24,427 nucleotides of DNA from Kofleriaceae bacterium (GTDB lineage Bacteria > Myxococcota_A > Polyangia > Haliangiales > Haliangiaceae): positions 1 to 24,427 of the forward strand of contig JBKJLC010000049.1 of the NCBI GenBank assembly GCA_046597055.1, written 5' to 3'. Every line of letters begins with the position of its first letter. Positions within the stretch are counted from its first letter, which is position 1. Below, piece by piece: positions 1 through 18,740 of the stretch. Below the pieces are notes generated by a model. It was not told the origin of the DNA and did not search any database. It was given only the letters and a program-made list of their open reading frames with translations. The position numbers were made by a program, and so were the translations under genes.

Positions 1-201
1 CAGGGCGCCGGCGCCGATCGCGGCGCTGCGCAGATCCGTGATCAGGAAGCCCGGATTCAGCGCGAACAACCGGCGCGCGGCCCGGCCGTCGTCGGTCGAC
101 GCCACCGTCAGCCCGGCTCTGGTGAGGACGAGGTCGAGGGCGGTGCGCACGTCACGATCGAGCTCAACCAGCAGCACGCGGCGATTCGGTTGTTGCGACA
201 T
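1..201 (-). CDS. Response-regulator receiver (CheY-like) domain protein, 5' part only (runs off the window)
   Basis: Manual translation from ATG 201 gives MSQQPNRRVLLVELDRDVRTALDLVLTRAGLTVASTDDGRAARRLFALNPGFLITDLRS. This matches the receiver pattern VLLVE..., xDG and LITDL. It is absent from the ORF track because there is no stop in the window. Confidence 0.75.
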   Translation of the reverse strand, partial: MSQQPNRRVLLVELDRDVRTALDLVLTRAGLTVASTDDGRAARRLFALNPGFLITDLRSAAIGAGAL

Positions 202-308
202 TGTCAGTACGGTAAGGCGGCGCGCGCCCGGATCCTGTCAGCCATGATCACCCGGGAGGTTGTAGGAACCGGACGACGGAAAGGCTCGCAACCCGACCTG
301 TAGGTGCT

Positions 309-328
309 ACCTTTTGCCGGCAAAAGGT
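309..328. promoter_or_regulatory. Perfect 20-bp palindrome ACCTTTTGCCGGCAAAAGGT overlapping the start of the nitrilase-fold gene; putative operator
   Basis: The sequence equals its own reverse complement and is AT-rich for this window. It lies in a divergent promoter region. The operator role is inferred. Confidence 0.55.
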
Positions 329-1643
329 GTCCGGTCTCCGAACGTTCGGCGCCGCCCTCGACCCGGTCCTCGTCGAGCTGCGCGCCCGCCCCGCGATCCA
401 CGTCACCGAGGTGCTCGCGGCGCTCCTGCGGGTCTGTCGCGCTCACGAGGACTTCCTGGTCCGTCACAAGGTGGCTCACGAGCACTTCGCGGCGGTGGCC
501 ACGCTCGAGGCTCGCCTGGCGCGGGTCTGTGCCGACCATGGACGCGAACGCTGGCAGGCCGCGACGCTCGGCGCGCTCGCCACCGAGCTCGAGCTCGCGG
601 CGCAGATCGTCCCGCCGCCGCTGGTCGCGCTGTCGGCGGCGCGCTGGATCGAGCGGCAGCACCGCGCCCACCTGATCCACTATTTTCGCGACCACGACCG
701 CGTCGTGCACGCCGGCGATCCGTGGCCGATCCTCGACTCGCCGGCCGGCTGCTACCCGCGGCCGACCGGCAATCCGCAGAGCCGCGGGCGCGCGGCCGAC
801 CGCGGCGAGTGGTTGACGCTGGTGCCCGAGTACACCGCCGGGCTCGAGATCCGCCTGCGCTGGTGCGGCCCCCACCTGCCGGTGCTGCGCCGCGGCAGCC
901 GGATCGCGGTCGGCGTCCTTGCCAAGGACGTCGGCGACTTCGAGTTCGACCGCCTCAGCCCCGGCGGCGCGCCGCGGTTCTACCGGGTGCGCCCCCGGGT
1001 CCCCGCCTACTGGGCCCGCATCGAGGCCGTGCTGGCCCACGCCCACGCCGCCGGGGCCGAGGTCCTGGTCCTCCCCGAGCTGGCGCTGACCGAGGAGCTG
1101 CACGCCCGCCTGCTCGCGCACCCGCTCACCGCCGAGATCCCGCTGCTGGTCGCCGGCAGCCGCCACGTCGCGCGCGACGGCGACGAGCCCGGCCGCAACG
1201 TCACGACCGTGATCGCCCGCGGCCGCGTGCTGGCCGAGCACGCCAAGCTGTCGGACTTCTTCTTCCGCGACAGCGGCGTGGATCGGTTCGAACACATTCA
1301 CCCCGGAGGGGTGATGACTGTGCTGGTCTCCGACCGTGCCAGCGCGCTGGTCCTCATCTGCAAGGACGTGCTGCGTGCCGACTGGCAGCACCTCACGGCC
1401 CAGCTGGCCCCGCGCCTGCTGCTGGTTCCGTCGATGACGTACGAATACAGCGATTTCAATGCGTTCGCCGAGCGCATGGCCCGCGACCCGCAGGCCCACA
1501 CCTTCGTGGCCAACGTGGGGCCAGCGCCCGCGATCGTTGGTCGTCCATGCCGGCAAGACCCGGTGATCGTGATGGATTCCGATGTGGGCCGCTGCGTCAT
1601 CTACGAGATCGGCGAGGCTGTGGTAAACGAGATCAGTTCCTGA
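327..1643 (+). CDS. Carbon-nitrogen hydrolase (nitrilase-fold) domain protein with an unknown ~190-aa N-terminal region
   Basis: Glu-Lys-Cys triad motifs AEVLVLPEL, HAKL and LICKD, plus GS, RN and LLVPS/VAN elements, in canonical order. Start codon (GTG) uncertain. Confidence 0.75.
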   Translation: MSGLRTFGAALDPVLVELRARPAIHVTEVLAALLRVCRAHEDFLVRHKVAHEHFAAVATLEARLARVCADHGRERWQAATLGALATELELAAQIVPPPLVALSAARWIERQHRAHLIHYFRDHDRVVHAGDPWPILDSPAGCYPRPTGNPQSRGRAADRGEWLTLVPEYTAGLEIRLRWCGPHLPVLRRGSRIAVGVLAKDVGDFEFDRLSPGGAPRFYRVRPRVPAYWARIEAVLAHAHAAGAEVLVLPELALTEELHARLLAHPLTAEIPLLVAGSRHVARDGDEPGRNVTTVIARGRVLAEHAKLSDFFFRDSGVDRFEHIHPGGVMTVLVSDRASALVLICKDVLRADWQHLTAQLAPRLLLVPSMTYEYSDFNAFAERMARDPQAHTFVANVGPAPAIVGRPCRQDPVIVMDSDVGRCVIYEIGEAVVNEISS

Positions 1644-1665
1644 TGGCAACCATCGTCGAATTAGC

Positions 1666-1698
1666 ACGTTGACGGTAACGTAAATTACCTGTCAGACT
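1666..1698 (+). promoter_or_regulatory. Putative sigma-70-type promoter (-35 TTGACG 1669-1674, -10-like CAGACT 1693-1698) overlapped by inverted repeats
   Basis: AT-rich island containing ACGTT-N6-AACGT (1666-1681) and TGACGGTAA-N6-TTACCTGTCA (1670-1694, one bulge), upstream of the HTH gene. Confidence 0.45.
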
Positions 1699-1771
1699 GC
1701 AATCGACCCGAACACCTCGACTGGTTCCCCAGCTGGCCCGACAGCCAGCAGCCGTACGAAAGGGGGCTCCC

Positions 1772-2962
1772 ATGGAGCGCGCCGCACTGATGCAGACCGG
1801 AACCCGCGAGGCCGACGTGGCGGCGGGAGAGCCGTCTCGGGACGACCGCTCGGATCTGATCAGCCTGCTGACGTCGACCGACCCGGCCGACCTGGCCGAG
1901 GCGTCGCGGGCGCTGGGCCGCGACCTCGCCAACCATCGGCACCAGGCGGTGGACCAGGTCCGCCGCCACCTCGACGGCATGCTGCACGGTGACGCGGCGC
2001 CGTTCGTGCGCGGGGTCGCGCTGGCGCTCGAGCACGTCGCCAGCGCGTTCGCGGTCGCCGAGACCGAGGTGGCCGAGCTGGCGCCGCTGGTGCGCTCGGT
2101 GCAGCTGCGCGCGGGCTGGAAGAAGGTGCTGCTCGCGCTCGCGGATGGCGCGCTGCGTCCGTCCGAGCTGGCCGCGCGCACCGCGGTCTCGCGCGGCCGG
2201 GTCAGCCACGTGCTGGCCGGGCTCGAGCGGGTCAGTCTGGTCGAGCGGTCGCGGGTCGACGGCGATGGCCGCGAGCGGATGTGTCGGCTGTCGCCGCTCG
2301 GCCACCGGGTGCTGACCGACGTCGACCGCGGGCCGTCGCCGGTCGCGGTCGACCTCGACGCCGCGGTGGTCGCGACCACCTACATGCTGGCCAAGCTGTG
2401 CGCGCGCGGCCGGGCCTCGCGCAGCGCGCTCGAGGACGCGCTCGCCGAGCACCTCGAGCGCGGCGCGGTCCCCCAGATCGCCGACACCATCCTGCGCGCG
2501 GCCCGCAACGCCGGGCTGGCGGTGGTCTCGGCCGACTTCGCGGTCACCCTCGCCGAGGTCCACCTGCAGGACATCCTCAACGACGCGCTCGAGCACGCGT
2601 TCGACGACGACGGCCCGCTGATCCCGGTGATCGACCTGGCGCGCGCGCAGGCCCCGGCCGGCGGGCTGGTGGTGGTGCGCTCGGAGCTGCGCCGCCAGCG
2701 CTGGGACCTCGTCATCGCCAAGCGACGGCTCGACGATCTGCGCCTGGTCGCGTCGGCCGACTGGCTGACCGGCGAGGTCGACCGGATCGTCGACCGCGAC
2801 CGGCCCTACGTCATTGTCTACGACAGCCCGCCCCTGGTGCGGTCCGAGCGCGCTGGCGACTCGCCCGCGCGCCAGCTGCTCGGCGATGCCACCGGGGTGT
2901 TCTGCTACGCGGTGACCGGCACCACCTTGCCCGAGGGCGTTACCCCGCTGGAGCTGGCGTGA
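1772..2962 (+). CDS. Winged helix-turn-helix (MarR/ArsR-like) multidomain protein
   Basis: Central wHTH LADGALRPSELAARTAVSRGRVSHVLAGLERVSLVERSRVDGDGRERMCRLSPLG. Purine-rich RBS-like AAGGGGG upstream of the ATG. N- and C-terminal regions not recognised. Confidence 0.75.
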   Translation: MERAALMQTGTREADVAAGEPSRDDRSDLISLLTSTDPADLAEASRALGRDLANHRHQAVDQVRRHLDGMLHGDAAPFVRGVALALEHVASAFAVAETEVAELAPLVRSVQLRAGWKKVLLALADGALRPSELAARTAVSRGRVSHVLAGLERVSLVERSRVDGDGRERMCRLSPLGHRVLTDVDRGPSPVAVDLDAAVVATTYMLAKLCARGRASRSALEDALAEHLERGAVPQIADTILRAARNAGLAVVSADFAVTLAEVHLQDILNDALEHAFDDDGPLIPVIDLARAQAPAGGLVVVRSELRRQRWDLVIAKRRLDDLRLVASADWLTGEVDRIVDRDRPYVIVYDSPPLVRSERAGDSPARQLLGDATGVFCYAVTGTTLPEGVTPLELA

Positions 2963-3639
2963 GGCGCGCGGTGGATCGCCCGACCCGGGCGGCCACCGAC
3001 GCCGAGATCCAGGAGGTGGTGGTGGTGCAGCCGCGGCGCGGCTTGCCCGCGCTGATCGAGCGCGCGCTGGGGACCTCGGGTGCGCTGCTGCGCGGACACT
3101 TCGGGCTACAAGGCGGCAAGCACACCGAATATTTCATCCGCTTCCGCGCGCTCGCCCGCGATCCCGCGGTGCTCGACGAGCTCGCGCGGCACCTGCTGGC
3201 CGGCGCCGACGTCCCCGCCGGCGCGACCGTGCTGGTCCCGGAGTCGGCCGGCTACTTTCTGGGCGAGGCGATCCGCGCCCGCATCGGCGGCACGCTCGCG
3301 GTCGCCCGCACCGACCTGCAGCGGCGGCCGGCGCGCGCGCTGCTCCACGGCGCGCTCGCCGCCGACACGCCGGTGGTGGTGGTCAACGACGTGGTCACCA
3401 CCGGTGCCTCGCTCGAGCCGCTGCTCGACCTGGTCGCCGACCGCGGCGCGGTGGTCAGCGCCGCGCTGGTGTTCGGCGCGCTCGACGGCACCGGCTTCCG
3501 CGCGATGCTGGGCCGCCGCCGCCTGGTCGGCGACCACCTGGTCGAGGCCGGCCCGGCGTGGAGCTACTACCAGCCCGAGGCGTGTCCGGCCTGTCTCGCC
3601 GGCGCGCCCCCGCTGTTCGCGGCCGCCGAGCTGAACTGA
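2959..3639 (+). CDS. Type I phosphoribosyltransferase, divergent orotate PRTase (PyrE)-like
   Basis: GTG 2959 overlaps the upstream stop (GTGA). Motifs: GALLRGHFGLQGGKHTEYF, PRPP-binding VVVVNDVVTTGASL, C-terminal YQPEACPAC. Confidence 0.8.
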   Translation: MRRAVDRPTRAATDAEIQEVVVVQPRRGLPALIERALGTSGALLRGHFGLQGGKHTEYFIRFRALARDPAVLDELARHLLAGADVPAGATVLVPESAGYFLGEAIRARIGGTLAVARTDLQRRPARALLHGALAADTPVVVVNDVVTTGASLEPLLDLVADRGAVVSAALVFGALDGTGFRAMLGRRRLVGDHLVEAGPAWSYYQPEACPACLAGAPPLFAAAELN

Positions 3640-3659
3640 GCGCCCGGGCTCACCGCGCG

Positions 3660-4346
3660 TCAGCACGTCGAGCAGGTGGCCGGCTGCGAGCTGCAGCCCG
3701 GGCCCCGTACGCACGCGGCCGCCGGGCATTCCGCCCCCCCGAGGCAGGAGCCCACGCCGGTGCAGGTGACGTCGCAGGCGCACGTGTCCTTGCACTTCAC
3801 CTCGTTCCGGCACGCGTCGGCGCCCGAACATTCGACGTCGCACGGGCCGCGATCGCAGTGCACCTCGTTCATGCAGCTGCTGGGCCCGCTGCACTCGACC
3901 TCGCACGCCGCCATGCCGTGGCATCGCACGCCGCCGTTGCAGGCGCCGGTCCCGCTGCACGTGACCCGGCACGGGATGTTGCGGGGACACTCGACGGTCG
4001 CCGCACACGCGCCATCGCCACACGCGATCGTGCACACGCCGCCGACGCAGGTGCCCTGGGTGCACAGGAGCTCGCACGCGCTCTGCGAGGCGTCGGTCGC
4101 GGGGGCGTCGACCGGTGGGGTGCCATCGGTGGGCTCGGCGGCATCGGCGAGGCCACCGTCGAGGTAGGCGGCGCACTGGCCCGCGATCGCCTCGGCCGCG
4201 CACCACCCGTCCGCGCCACACACCTGACCCGAGGCGCAGTCTCCGGCCGCGACGCACGTGACCGTGCAGTTGCGTAGGGACGGGTCGTAGCAGGCCGCGG
4301 CCAGGACCATGGTCGCGACGAGGACTGCCAGGCCCGGGATGCGCAC
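3660..4346 (-). CDS. Cysteine-rich lipoprotein with about 5 tandem C-x-V-x-C-x-G-x3-C repeats
   Basis: Signal peptide with lipobox LAAAC, a D/A/P-rich linker, and repeats such as CRVTCSGTGAC, CEVECSGPSSC, CDVECSGADAC, CDVTCTGVGSC. Confidence 0.8.
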   Translation of the reverse strand: MRIPGLAVLVATMVLAAACYDPSLRNCTVTCVAAGDCASGQVCGADGWCAAEAIAGQCAAYLDGGLADAAEPTDGTPPVDAPATDASQSACELLCTQGTCVGGVCTIACGDGACAATVECPRNIPCRVTCSGTGACNGGVRCHGMAACEVECSGPSSCMNEVHCDRGPCDVECSGADACRNEVKCKDTCACDVTCTGVGSCLGGAECPAAACVRGPGCSSQPATCSTC

Positions 4347-4426
4347 CGATCGAAGCTACCGGATCGCGCCAGGTTCGCCCAGTCGGGCGCGGGGGCGTCG
4401 TCGGGCGCACCGGCCCCGACCGGCGC

Positions 4427-10964: not shown

Positions 10965-12886
<1,922 letters not shown>

Positions 12887-12887
<1 letters not shown>

Positions 12888-17522: not shown

Positions 17523-18740
17523 TCAGAGCCAGTTGCGGATGCGGAACGAGAGCCAGGCCAGCGACTTCTGCCACCAGCGCAGGCGGCTCCACTCCGCGAG
17601 CTCGAACACGGCGGTCAGCCCCTCGTCCTTGCGGAAGTGGGCCTCCATCGCAGCGCCGACGTCGGCGTCGAGGATCTCCACGATGACCTCGAGGTTGTAG
17701 CGGAGGCTGCGGTTGTCGAGGTTGTAGCTGCCGATCGCCGACCAGATGCCGTCCACCACCGCGGTCTTGGCGTGCATCATCGGCCCCTTCCACCGCAGGA
17801 TGCGCAGCCCGCGCGCCGCCATCTTCCGGTAGATGTAGTGCCCCGCGTACTCGACGGCGCGGATGTCCGAGCTGCCCGGCACGATCACCGCGACCTCGAC
17901 GCCGCGCGCAACCGCCTTGTACAGCGCGCGCCGCAGCCGCCGGTCAGGCAAGAAGTAGGCGTTCTCCAGCAGGATCGTCCGCCGCGCGCCGGAGATCGCG
18001 CTGACGTACGCGCGCCGGATGGCGCCGCGCCGTCGGAGCTTGGTGTTGTCGACGACGCGGACCGCGATGTCGCCAGGTCGGTCCTGCACGTCGTCGGCGC
18101 GCTTCGGCACCGGGTAGCGCGAACCGCCCTCCGCGATCCACAGACTCCGGAACAGCCGGGCCAGGTCGGCGACCACCGGGCCGCGCAGCTCGCACTGGAC
18201 GTCGTGCCAGCCGTGGCCACCGTCTTCCTTGGCGGCGTAGTCGTCGGCGATGTTGATGCCGCCGGTGAACCCGACCTCGTCGTCGACCACGAGGATCTTG
18301 CGGTGGTCGCGCTTCGACAGGTTGAAGCGCGCGCGCCACGGCGCGATCGGGTGGTACTCGAGGACCTGGACGCCGGCCGCGGTCATCTTCTGGACGAACG
18401 CGTCGCTCATGCCGAAGCCGCCGATCGCGTCGTAGATCACCCGCACGGTCACCCCGGCCCGGGCCCGGTCGATCACCGCCTCGGCGAAGCGGGTGCCGAT
18501 GTTGTCGTCCTCCCAGATGTACGTCTCCAGGCAGATCGAGCGACGGGCGCCGGCGATCGCGGCCAGCATCGCGCGGTAGGTCGGGCCCCCGCCCACCAGC
18601 ACCTTGACCGCGTTGCCGCGCCGGATCCGGTACAGGCTGCGCGCGTAGCGGGTCACCGCGACCAGCAGGGACGTGGTGTGCGGGGTGGCGTCCGGGCGGA
18701 CTGCCTCGGCGACGGCGGCGGGGCTCGGCTTGGCGGTCAC
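17523..18740 (-). CDS. clsB: Cardiolipin synthase (ClsB-like phospholipase D family)
   Basis: Two HKD motifs (HRKILVVD, HAKTAVVD), plus ETYIW, GGINI and GSYNLD. No N-terminal TM hairpin. Confidence 0.82.
   Translation of the reverse strand: MTAKPSPAAVAEAVRPDATPHTTSLLVAVTRYARSLYRIRRGNAVKVLVGGGPTYRAMLAAIAGARRSICLETYIWEDDNIGTRFAEAVIDRARAGVTVRVIYDAIGGFGMSDAFVQKMTAAGVQVLEYHPIAPWRARFNLSKRDHRKILVVDDEVGFTGGINIADDYAAKEDGGHGWHDVQCELRGPVVADLARLFRSLWIAEGGSRYPVPKRADDVQDRPGDIAVRVVDNTKLRRRGAIRRAYVSAISGARRTILLENAYFLPDRRLRRALYKAVARGVEVAVIVPGSSDIRAVEYAGHYIYRKMAARGLRILRWKGPMMHAKTAVVDGIWSAIGSYNLDNRSLRYNLEVIVEILDADVGAAMEAHFRKDEGLTAVFELAEWSRLRWWQKSLAWLSFRIRNWL

Follow-up and report, generated by a model that had tools for sequence, protein, structure and literature searches.

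The stretch of DNA analysed in this work, hereafter the window, is an entire 24,427-bp contig (JBKJLC010000049.1) from an 8.4-Mb, 94%-complete genome bin of a Kofleriaceae bacterium with 72% G+C. Positions 327–3639 are occupied by three co-oriented open reading frames (ORFs) on the plus strand, which we call genes 1, 2 and 3. Gene 1 (327–1643, GTG start) encodes a nitrilase-superfamily hydrolase of 438 amino acids, gene 2 (1772–2962, ATG start) a multidomain winged-helix protein of 396 amino acids, and gene 3 (2959–3639, GTG start) a protein of 226 amino acids with a phosphoribosyltransferase (PRTase) fold derived from orotate phosphoribosyltransferases (OPRTases). Their third-position GC of 0.91–0.95 is typical for real genes of a contig with 72% GC, and we hence take all three to be real. 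The GTGA at 2959–2962 is common to the stop of gene 2 and the start of gene 3. Across 21 loci the gap between these two genes is −4 in eight, −1 in four and at most 14 nt in 17. An earlier annotation made from the letters of the window (the original prediction) had described this overlapping arrangement and the lack of pyr-pathway neighbours, and both descriptions were accurate: the 19 other window ORFs inspected gave no match to a pyr-pathway family. Our analyses show that the three genes are a real and conserved module, an undescribed winged-helix/PRTase complex, as predicted by co-folding, plus an amidase. We found no description of such a module in the literature searched, and the original prediction had not recognised the combination as a named system either.

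Gene 1 is a divergent branch of the nitrilase superfamily, and this membership is based on fold and active site: the CN_hydrolase family (PF00795) scores 15.8 bits, below its gathering cut-off of 23.2. In a model computed with 29 homologs (predicted local distance difference test, pLDDT, 92.1), residues 188–430 adopt the nitrilase fold, an alpha-beta-beta-alpha sandwich. This part aligned with mouse Nit2 over 215 residues (VIA-align, Z 20.4, root-mean-square deviation 3.2), and 24 nitrilase-superfamily chains scored Z 15.6 or higher before values dropped to Z 6. Foldseek returned a Nesterenkonia amidase as best match (E 2.2e-11). The closest structures are tied, namely Nit2, the Nesterenkonia amidase and the glutaminase domains of nicotinamide adenine dinucleotide (NAD) synthetases, the latter with Z 19.2 and 18.8. 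The Nit2 omega-amidase and its two companions thus resemble gene 1 both in the fold of residues 188–430 (Z 18.8–20.4) and in the Glu-Lys-Glu-Cys site. Unlike the small-molecule amidases of the superfamily, gene 1 stays below the Pfam cut-off, has a family-specific N-terminal extension of 187 residues as well as the family-invariant residues H280, N291 and D347, and belongs to a family that pairs with a winged-helix gene in nearly all loci examined. The extension is helical over residues 1–120 and then beta-rich, and its comparison with known structures gave no clear match (best Z 5.0). Searches with gene 1 in the protein atlas found only unnamed or partly CN_hydrolase clusters, and in BFVD a single generic CN hydrolase of the Prochlorococcus phage P-SSM2 (E 1.1e-5).

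The residues E251 (nt 1077–1079), K307, E322 and C345 (nt 1359–1361, motif ICKD) are those that we take to be catalytic, an assumption made from the position of the familiar motifs and not from structural superposition. They are invariant or nearly so in the 29-sequence alignment, and among 178 family members they are found in 178, 176, 175 and 171 sequences, respectively; H280, N291 and D347 each occur in 177. Because the active site is almost invariant, the substrate of gene 1 is probably the same across the whole family. C345 is replaced in six members (by Gly in five, by Asp in one) and unaligned in another, with the rest of the site intact. The six are L059 (G029:C4), P0042, P0066, P0107, P0139 and P0151, and all of them keep the two Glu, the Lys, His, Asn and Asp. 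L059 also retains intact gene 2 and gene 3 neighbours. Such relatives may be pseudoenzymes that bind without cleaving.

Typical MarR-family regulators are compact single-domain proteins of about 150 amino acids. With its 396 residues gene 2 exceeds this size by a helical N-terminus, a second winged-helix-like unit and an alpha/beta domain. The N-terminal helical region covers residues ~27–112 and is followed by a MarR-type winged helix at 116–186, which is backed by MarR_2 (34.7 bits, passing the cut-off of 27) and by a fold match: residues 96–192 of the model (pLDDT 82.5, predicted template-modelling score 0.51) align with MarR-family chains at Z about 11–12.8, and residues 103–192 at Z about 11–12. 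Residues 195–260 would form the second winged-helix-like unit, placed there only from the order of secondary-structure elements. The C-terminal alpha/beta domain (285–396) is predicted to bind gene 3. Our searches gave no identity for this domain, which was barely probed in the whole-model fold searches because these were filled by the winged helix, and the protein atlas held no usable match for residues 190–396. Invariant residues of gene 2 include W311, D330, Y350 and P353. In the loci examined, the long form with its alpha/beta docking domain occurs only alongside gene 3. A domain shared by genes 1 and 2 was also considered, and with a probability of 0.3 in the profile-profile comparison none was shown.

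Gene 3 likewise sits at the edge of its family. It scores 19.4 bits with Pribosyltran (PF00156, cut-off 26.3), 39.9 with the equivalog TIGR01367 (pyrE_Therm, cut-off 150.25) and 32.1 with TIGR00336 (cut-off 106.8). Hence the view that all three proteins are atypical for their families proved right, with CN_hydrolase, Pribosyltran and pyrE_Therm below their cut-offs and a passing MarR_2 embedded in a 396-residue multidomain protein. A profile of the gene 3 family matched 32 PDB sequences at E ≤0.01, of which an OPRTase, 4paw_A, was best (E 5.6e-17). With these Thermus/Helicobacter-type OPRTases (TIGR01367; PDB 4paw), its best sequence relatives, gene 3 shares the GHF-x-L-x2-G-x-H motif, a TTG loop for phosphoribosyl pyrophosphate (PRPP) and a C-terminal CxxC. 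The PRPP loop of type I PRTases consists of four hydrophobic, two acidic and two hydrophobic residues, then T-T/S-G. In gene 3 it reads VVVVNDVVTTGAS (nt 3373–3411), where D144, T148 and G149 are invariant, and the first acidic position is N or S across the clade. Further invariant residues include H47, F48, H55, R61, E95, D119, R122, C209, C212 and E224, and a conserved acidic tail follows the CxxC.

It is by its losses that gene 3 stands apart from its relatives. Ten aligned clade members were compared with nine OPRTase relatives of the Thermus type, in which ED is uniform and DR is found in 9/9 and KPGS in 8/9. In the gene 3 clade ED is replaced by ND or SD, and neither DR nor the KPGSR tail is kept. 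The flexible loop has been reshaped, and the acidic tail is new. The ED, DR and KPGSR motifs of OPRTases serve ribose and orotate binding, with DR binding the base. We considered gene 3 as the pyrE of the cell and rejected this, since a canonical pyrE lies on another contig of the genome (C153; 110.2 bits against a cut-off of 106.8) and since gene 3 has lost motifs that are conserved in its OPRTase-type relatives. The module idea, which would have fallen with gene 3 as the only pyrE of the genome, thus survives. All members of the clade in the protein database come from Kofleriaceae, Haliangium, Sorangium and unnamed Myxococcota, and from there scores drop sharply to ordinary OPRTases. On sequence grounds, gene 3 derives from Thermus-type OPRTases and not from the PRTase clusters of retrons. 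In one relative from the genus (L041:10764–11422, G041:C39) gene 3 is split over two frames of 74 and 146 amino acids, by a frameshift or an assembly error.

Co-folding of gene 2 (residues 24–396) with gene 3 gave a score of 0.83 (runs 0.79, 0.84 and 0.83), compared with 0.00 for the best of three controls. Of 157 solved complexes 116 come up to this mark, as do 2 of 215 mismatched pairs, a calibration that is only rough because we used our own alignments. The runs agreed in at least 70% of contacts, with partner pLDDT of at least 88. On the gene 2 side, the predicted interface comprises residues 274, 277, 309–317 and 328–339, the latter two segments being helices of the alpha/beta domain. Gene 3 contributes residues 41, 44 and 61–67, the loop and helix after the PE-x-AG strand (95–103), the flexible loop (115–131) and, from the tail, 220 and 224–226. 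Family-invariant residues take part in it, i.e., the surroundings of W311 and D330 in gene 2 and L44, R61, E95, R122, G131 and E224 in gene 3. We take the gene 3 surface engaged in this way to be the dimer and active-site face of OPRTases, going by known structures of these enzymes. The co-fold hence supports binding of gene 3 by the alpha/beta domain of gene 2. It lends weight, short of proof, to the link between the winged-helix protein and the PRTase that the original prediction had drawn.

The three genes also travel together. In the 15 genus loci that we fetched, all three genes stand in the same order in 13, and the other two are cut by contig ends. Gene 1 was found in 30 of 101 genomes of the family, including 16/16 of the genus, and the gene 3 type is present in 16/16 genus genomes, too. 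The same gene order recurs at 25–45% identity in seven distant loci from other genera, and also in L080, L081 and L092; it is therefore kept across other genera and families of Myxococcota. A search from gene 3 alone found it in 4 of 401 sampled genomes of the phylum. Outside the genus, three gene 3 loci have a gene 1 homolog upstream in every case, with a winged-helix gene in between in two and a 1.3-kb gap without a gene 2 match in the third. Co-occurrence of the three families elsewhere, on which the original prediction had staked its case, was thus observed. The flanks are common across the genus as well (a T2SSE ATPase upstream in 11/15 loci, a member of the sigma-54 activator family downstream in 8/15), and no plasmid or phage sequence was matched when gene 1 was searched by tblastn. 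The locus is chromosomal and vertically inherited within the genus. An upstream response regulator was considered as a further part of the module and dropped, as it was seen only in the closest relative.

One might suspect that three unrelated genes simply happen to be neighbours, with gene 3 as a surplus pyrE paralog beside a common MarR repressor and a common amidase. Each domain family is indeed common, and the flanking genes are of the housekeeping kind. Yet synteny at 25–45% identity across genera and families already contradicts a chance arrangement, and the conserved stop-start overlap, the co-fold score of 0.83 against 0.00, the restriction of the long gene 2 to the examined loci with gene 3, and the loss of OPRTase motifs also speak against it. 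We therefore regard this explanation as very improbable.

Two upstream regions were inspected for control elements. Ahead of gene 1, an extended −10-like element, TGCTACCTT (305–313, plus strand), lies about 14 nt before the start codon, and a TG-n-TA-nnn-T-like motif is visible by eye 10–25 nt before the start in most genus orthologs. An element so close to the start suggests a very short leader. The original prediction had placed palindromic sites before genes 1 and 2. A perfect 20-nt palindrome with 10-nt arms and no spacer does exist at 309–328 and overlaps the gene 1 start codon GTG; none of the 21 other upstream regions inspected has it in this place, and it is thus species-specific, so that we discarded it as a conserved operator. 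Before gene 2, no inverted repeat of 10 nt or longer was found, and only 5-bp arms can be seen by eye.

The spacer between genes 1 and 2 does contain a conserved block (1658–1699, plus strand). It is composed of an AT-rich GAATTA, a −35-like TTGACG (1669–1674), a conserved 18-nt spacer and a −10-like CAGACT (1693–1698). All 15 aligned genus loci contain it, with an invariant TTGAC compared to a mean column identity of 48%, and with a CA-n-ACT element. In the distant loci L057–L059 and L062, CATAGTTGA directly follows the gene 1 stop, and the next letter is C in three of them and A in L057. A strict sigma-70 consensus scan of positions 1–4400 found no promoter and did not detect this block. We read the block as a putative internal promoter for genes 2 and 3, and it possibly contains an operator. 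With a conserved promoter-like block of their own for genes 2 and 3, the module would not simply be one operon.

Gene 1 belongs to a family much larger than the module. Its profile retrieved 3673 cluster representatives at E ≤0.001, of which 462 lie below 1e-30, and most matches are full-length. Thirteen further family loci contain gene 1 paralogs without a PRTase. Downstream of the paralog, 11 of these 13 have a short winged-helix gene (~157–236 amino acids), with one other gene in between in L063 and L068 and, in L010, a distance of 770 nt with no gene called in between; in L065 no such gene was found downstream. A 5′-nucleotidase gene lies upstream of the paralog in nine of the 13. The genome studied here (G000) provides an example on contig C141 (L010:2498–5267), where a gene 1 homolog of ~31% identity and a 219-residue MarR_2 winged-helix gene occur without PRTase, just downstream of a 590-residue 5′-nucleotidase (Metallophos and 5_nucleotid_C, with a weak NadN_C match). 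The trio of 5′-nucleotidase, gene 1 homolog and winged-helix gene recurs in nine loci from three genera.

The paralogs bear on a biosynthetic explanation, in which gene 1 supplies either a carboxylated heterocycle or ammonia, the latter in the manner of the nitrilase-type glutaminase domain of NAD synthetase, gene 3 couples the product to PRPP, and gene 2 regulates the pathway. Such a two-enzyme pair would correspond, without homology, to amidophosphoribosyltransferase or to the PRTase that acts in nucleoside-antibiotic pathways such as that of tubercidin. It would agree with the NAD synthetase glutaminase domains among the tied top structures of gene 1 (Z 19.2 and 18.8) and with the loss of the DR motif, which binds the base and would be dispensable for an ammonia-using enzyme. 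Cooperation of PRTase and NUDIX enzymes is described for tubercidin synthesis in PMC6112128. Against this, most gene 1 paralogs have no adjoining PRTase, gene 1 seems to be transcribed separately from genes 2–3, the predicted partner of gene 3 is gene 2, and no other biosynthetic genes are conserved beside the module. We consider a biosynthetic pair improbable.

Some relatives of gene 1 are fused to further domains. Among the 12 longest of the top 150 representatives, two carry an N-terminal TIR_2 and five a C-terminal NUDIX domain, and one NUDIX-fused cluster includes Propionicimonas proteins. In a quick tree the NUDIX fusions form a clade of their own. TIR domains are mostly parts of immune systems. 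Scans of metagenome contigs with the TIR fusions P0107 and P0097, and of genome contigs with the NUDIX fusion P0145, found no relatives, and our search for longer fused forms of gene 1 returned none, which is weak evidence. When 147 genomes from the order were searched with P0107, no fusion of TIR and gene 1 emerged, and the one TIR protein found was a separate gene product of a locus rich in TIR. This locus (L091, G097:C634:3000–14683) has two consecutive large ORFs that start TIR-like and a third with a TIR-like motif near its start, as seen by eye. One of its ORFs, the sole one matching in the search, is 42% identical to the TIR part of P0107 and has no nitrilase part; L091 looks like a TIR-rich conflict locus.

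For the defence context, we scanned 128 neighbours from 24 loci with Pfam and 62 proteins with PADLOC, the latter including 54 of these neighbours and five window proteins. In PADLOC-DB 2.0, genes 1 and 3 have no family at E up to 1, and gene 2 gave only weak winged-helix matches to Csa3 and CARF models. The 128 neighbours contained no convincing defence gene by Pfam, in a tally made without a background for statistical comparison, and the PADLOC matches among the neighbours and window proteins were to kinase, ABC-ATPase, sigma-54-activator, Csa3-type winged-helix and PLD (DrmC) models, that is, to widespread domain families. The RTasNitrilase model of the DRT (a reverse transcriptase, RT, defence) series matched one NUDIX-fused relative weakly (E 2.5e-6). 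No RT or mobile-element gene is present among the window ORFs, no Rfam family was found in the window, and the sole RVT_1 match of the genome is located on another contig (C157). Independence from an RT, as proposed in the original prediction, therefore holds. Its anti-phage context does not find support, given the PADLOC result for genes 1 and 3, generic neighbours, no plasmid or phage match, and a chromosomal locus shared by the genus. Its interpretation is thus partly supported, and the TIR and NUDIX fusions in the gene 1 family fit a nucleotide or NAD theme.

The remaining window genes encode fumarase, cytochrome bd, a sigma-54 activator and similar functions, so that the flanks are housekeeping. 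Directly downstream of gene 3 on the opposite strand (3660–4346, minus) lies a cysteine-rich ORF of 228 amino acids with a lipoprotein-like start and no Pfam family. It overlaps 3676–4167 on the plus strand, and the codon-bias caller preferred the plus-strand frame. Weak relatives of this 228-residue ORF are found near the module in two genus loci (L050 and L051). At 10965–12887, the window encodes a protein of 640 residues that combines eCIS_core (PF13699) with a LysM domain at its C-terminus, and an eCIS_core-bearing relative occurs near a gene 1 paralog in L072. The PLD-family protein at 17523–18740 (minus) has two PLDc motifs and weak PADLOC DrmC matches (E ~3e-12); it adjoins greA and is for this reason probably a phospholipid enzyme rather than a defence gene.

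How might these components work together? We favour metabolite-sensing regulation over RT-independent immunity and would give it a probability of roughly 0.4. Control of the module would then lie with genes 2 and 3 as a split winged-helix/PRTase unit, and gene 1 would be an amidase for a carboxamide metabolite. The vertically inherited module of these Haliangium/Kofleria-type myxobacteria would be composed of two transcription units. The first, gene 1, would provide a catalytically competent amidase that converts a small amide or nitrile to ammonia and a carboxylate. In the second, genes 2 and 3 would be translationally coupled, and the alpha/beta domain of gene 2 would dock on the PRTase-fold protein by a contact that covers its pyrophosphate loop, flexible loop and C-terminal tail. 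The pair could thus be a split sensor-regulator, a trigger-enzyme arrangement like PurR, in which gene 3 binds or turns over PRPP or a base and relays this to the DNA-binding gene 2 protein. The latter might act on the conserved block in the spacer between genes 1 and 2 and thereby adjust how strongly the module is expressed. In the underlying chemistry, a pyridine nucleotide or an N-heterocycle with a carboxamide group may be turned over or salvaged, with gene 1 turning the amide into the acid and gene 3 performing or sensing a PRPP step. Gene order, folds, the conserved active site and the lost OPRTase motifs are observed, and the co-fold supports binding; DNA binding at the block, ligand, substrate and physiological role are what we infer here.

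The model for this arrangement is PurR of Bacillus subtilis, in which a winged helix is fused to a PRTase-fold PRPP sensor. As in PurR, a DNA-binding winged helix would be coupled to a PRTase fold that has departed from its catalytic family. Unlike PurR, two polypeptides are involved, these are joined via a separate alpha/beta domain, and the PRTase is of the OPRTase type. In family scans PurR gave no sequence match, and PyrR appeared only at E 0.033.

Several observations weigh against sensing of a metabolite as the purpose of the module. Replacement of the gene 1 Cys in 6/178 members is easier to reconcile with a role in binding than with plain metabolism. The occurrence of the module across the phylum is patchy, with the gene 3 type in 4/401 and the gene 1 family in 10/401 genomes, and genomes can hold 2–4 paralogs of the gene 1 family. 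In three comparable genomes, the module proteins are more diverged (60, 64–68 and 74–76% identity) than two flanking genes (79–85%). In the quick tree, the two TIR fusions branch from within the main clade with gene 3 (Shimodaira–Hasegawa-like approximate likelihood ratio test, 98). Also a NAD-salvage version, in which genes 1 and 3 replace PncA and PncB, is without clean phyletic support. The NAPRTase family PF04095 was not found in this 94%-complete genome. It was detected in 7 of 23 genomes of the family with gene 3, compared with 40 of 78 without it. These counts include the unpublished genomes G076 and G081, a single genus carries the difference, most matches are weak (27–38 bits), and seven genomes have both.

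Part of these observations would suit an RT-independent immune or conflict module, in which genes 2 and 3 are a split analog of the retron type III effector. Gene 2 would keep the PRTase inactive and sense a trigger, e.g., foreign nucleic acid, and gene 3, once freed, would use up PRPP or synthesise an aberrant nucleotide. Gene 1 could be a second effector or a remover of an NAD-derived amide, and its TIR-fused relatives would be versions with built-in NADase. We regard such a module as the main rival, somewhat less likely than metabolite sensing. A more specific form of it seems to us about as likely: an RT-free, chromosomally fixed immune module of social soil bacteria in which the winged-helix sensor keeps the OPRTase-derived PRTase in a heterocomplex and, on its trigger, releases it to drain PRPP or to produce a toxic or signalling phosphoribosyl compound, in which the amidase destroys a carboxamide such as nicotinamide or a product derived from NAD so that the pool is not rebuilt, and of which the TIR and NUDIX fusions are single-chain versions.

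Precedent for immunity comes from retrons. According to PMC7736814, the PRTase-like protein of type III retrons comes with a winged-helix protein, either as its own polypeptide or fused, and such an effector pair, fused in Retron-Eco11 (type III-A3), resembles our module in combining a PRTase fold and a winged helix in adjacent genes or in one chain; for our module, too, a physical unit of the two is predicted. PMC12746101 describes that activation of the Retron-Eco11 effector lowers PRPP by ~50% and that its PRPP motif is without the first acidic residue; it keeps only the second, as gene 3 does. ShosT is presented as a PRTase defence toxin in PMC11961720. Immunity would further agree with the patchy occurrence, multiple copies and fast divergence of the module, with the binding that the co-fold supports, with the TIR and NUDIX fusions, the former within the gene 3-bearing clade, and with the weak RTasNitrilase match of one NUDIX-fused relative.

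Unlike type III retrons, the module has no RT or non-coding RNA nearby, its winged-helix gene comes first (the order is reversed), a nitrilase gene is added, and it occupies a chromosomal locus found in 16/16 genus genomes. The Eco11 effector resembles purine PRTases (PMC12746101), whereas gene 3 descends from OPRTases and not from retron PRTase clusters. Immunity is also at odds with PADLOC, which was without a match for genes 1 and 3 and generic for the neighbours, with the lack of mobile-element genes in the window, and with the negative plasmid and phage searches. Another point of comparison is DRT1/UG1, a reverse transcriptase fused to a nitrilase domain. Both place a nitrilase-fold domain in a proposed anti-phage setting; our module has no RT, and gene 1 matches no PADLOC family even at E up to 1. 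Metabolite sensing by a split winged-helix/PRTase unit is the explanation that we prefer.

Identity of the gene 1 substrate would tell NAD or nucleotide housekeeping from immunity. Bench testing is feasible, since the cultured relative Haliangium ochraceum has a gene 3 homolog (P0263). Beyond the module, the gene 1 family emerges as a large branch of the nitrilase superfamily that has no name yet (462 representatives below 1e-30), with a fixed active site, a winged-helix partner and an occasional TIR or NUDIX fusion. If the co-fold holds, genes 2 and 3 would show that nature has recruited a PRTase fold to serve a DNA-binding protein as a subunit of its own. The module would then be intermediate between regulators of the PurR type and the retron effectors that combine PRTase and winged helix, with no need for a reverse transcriptase.

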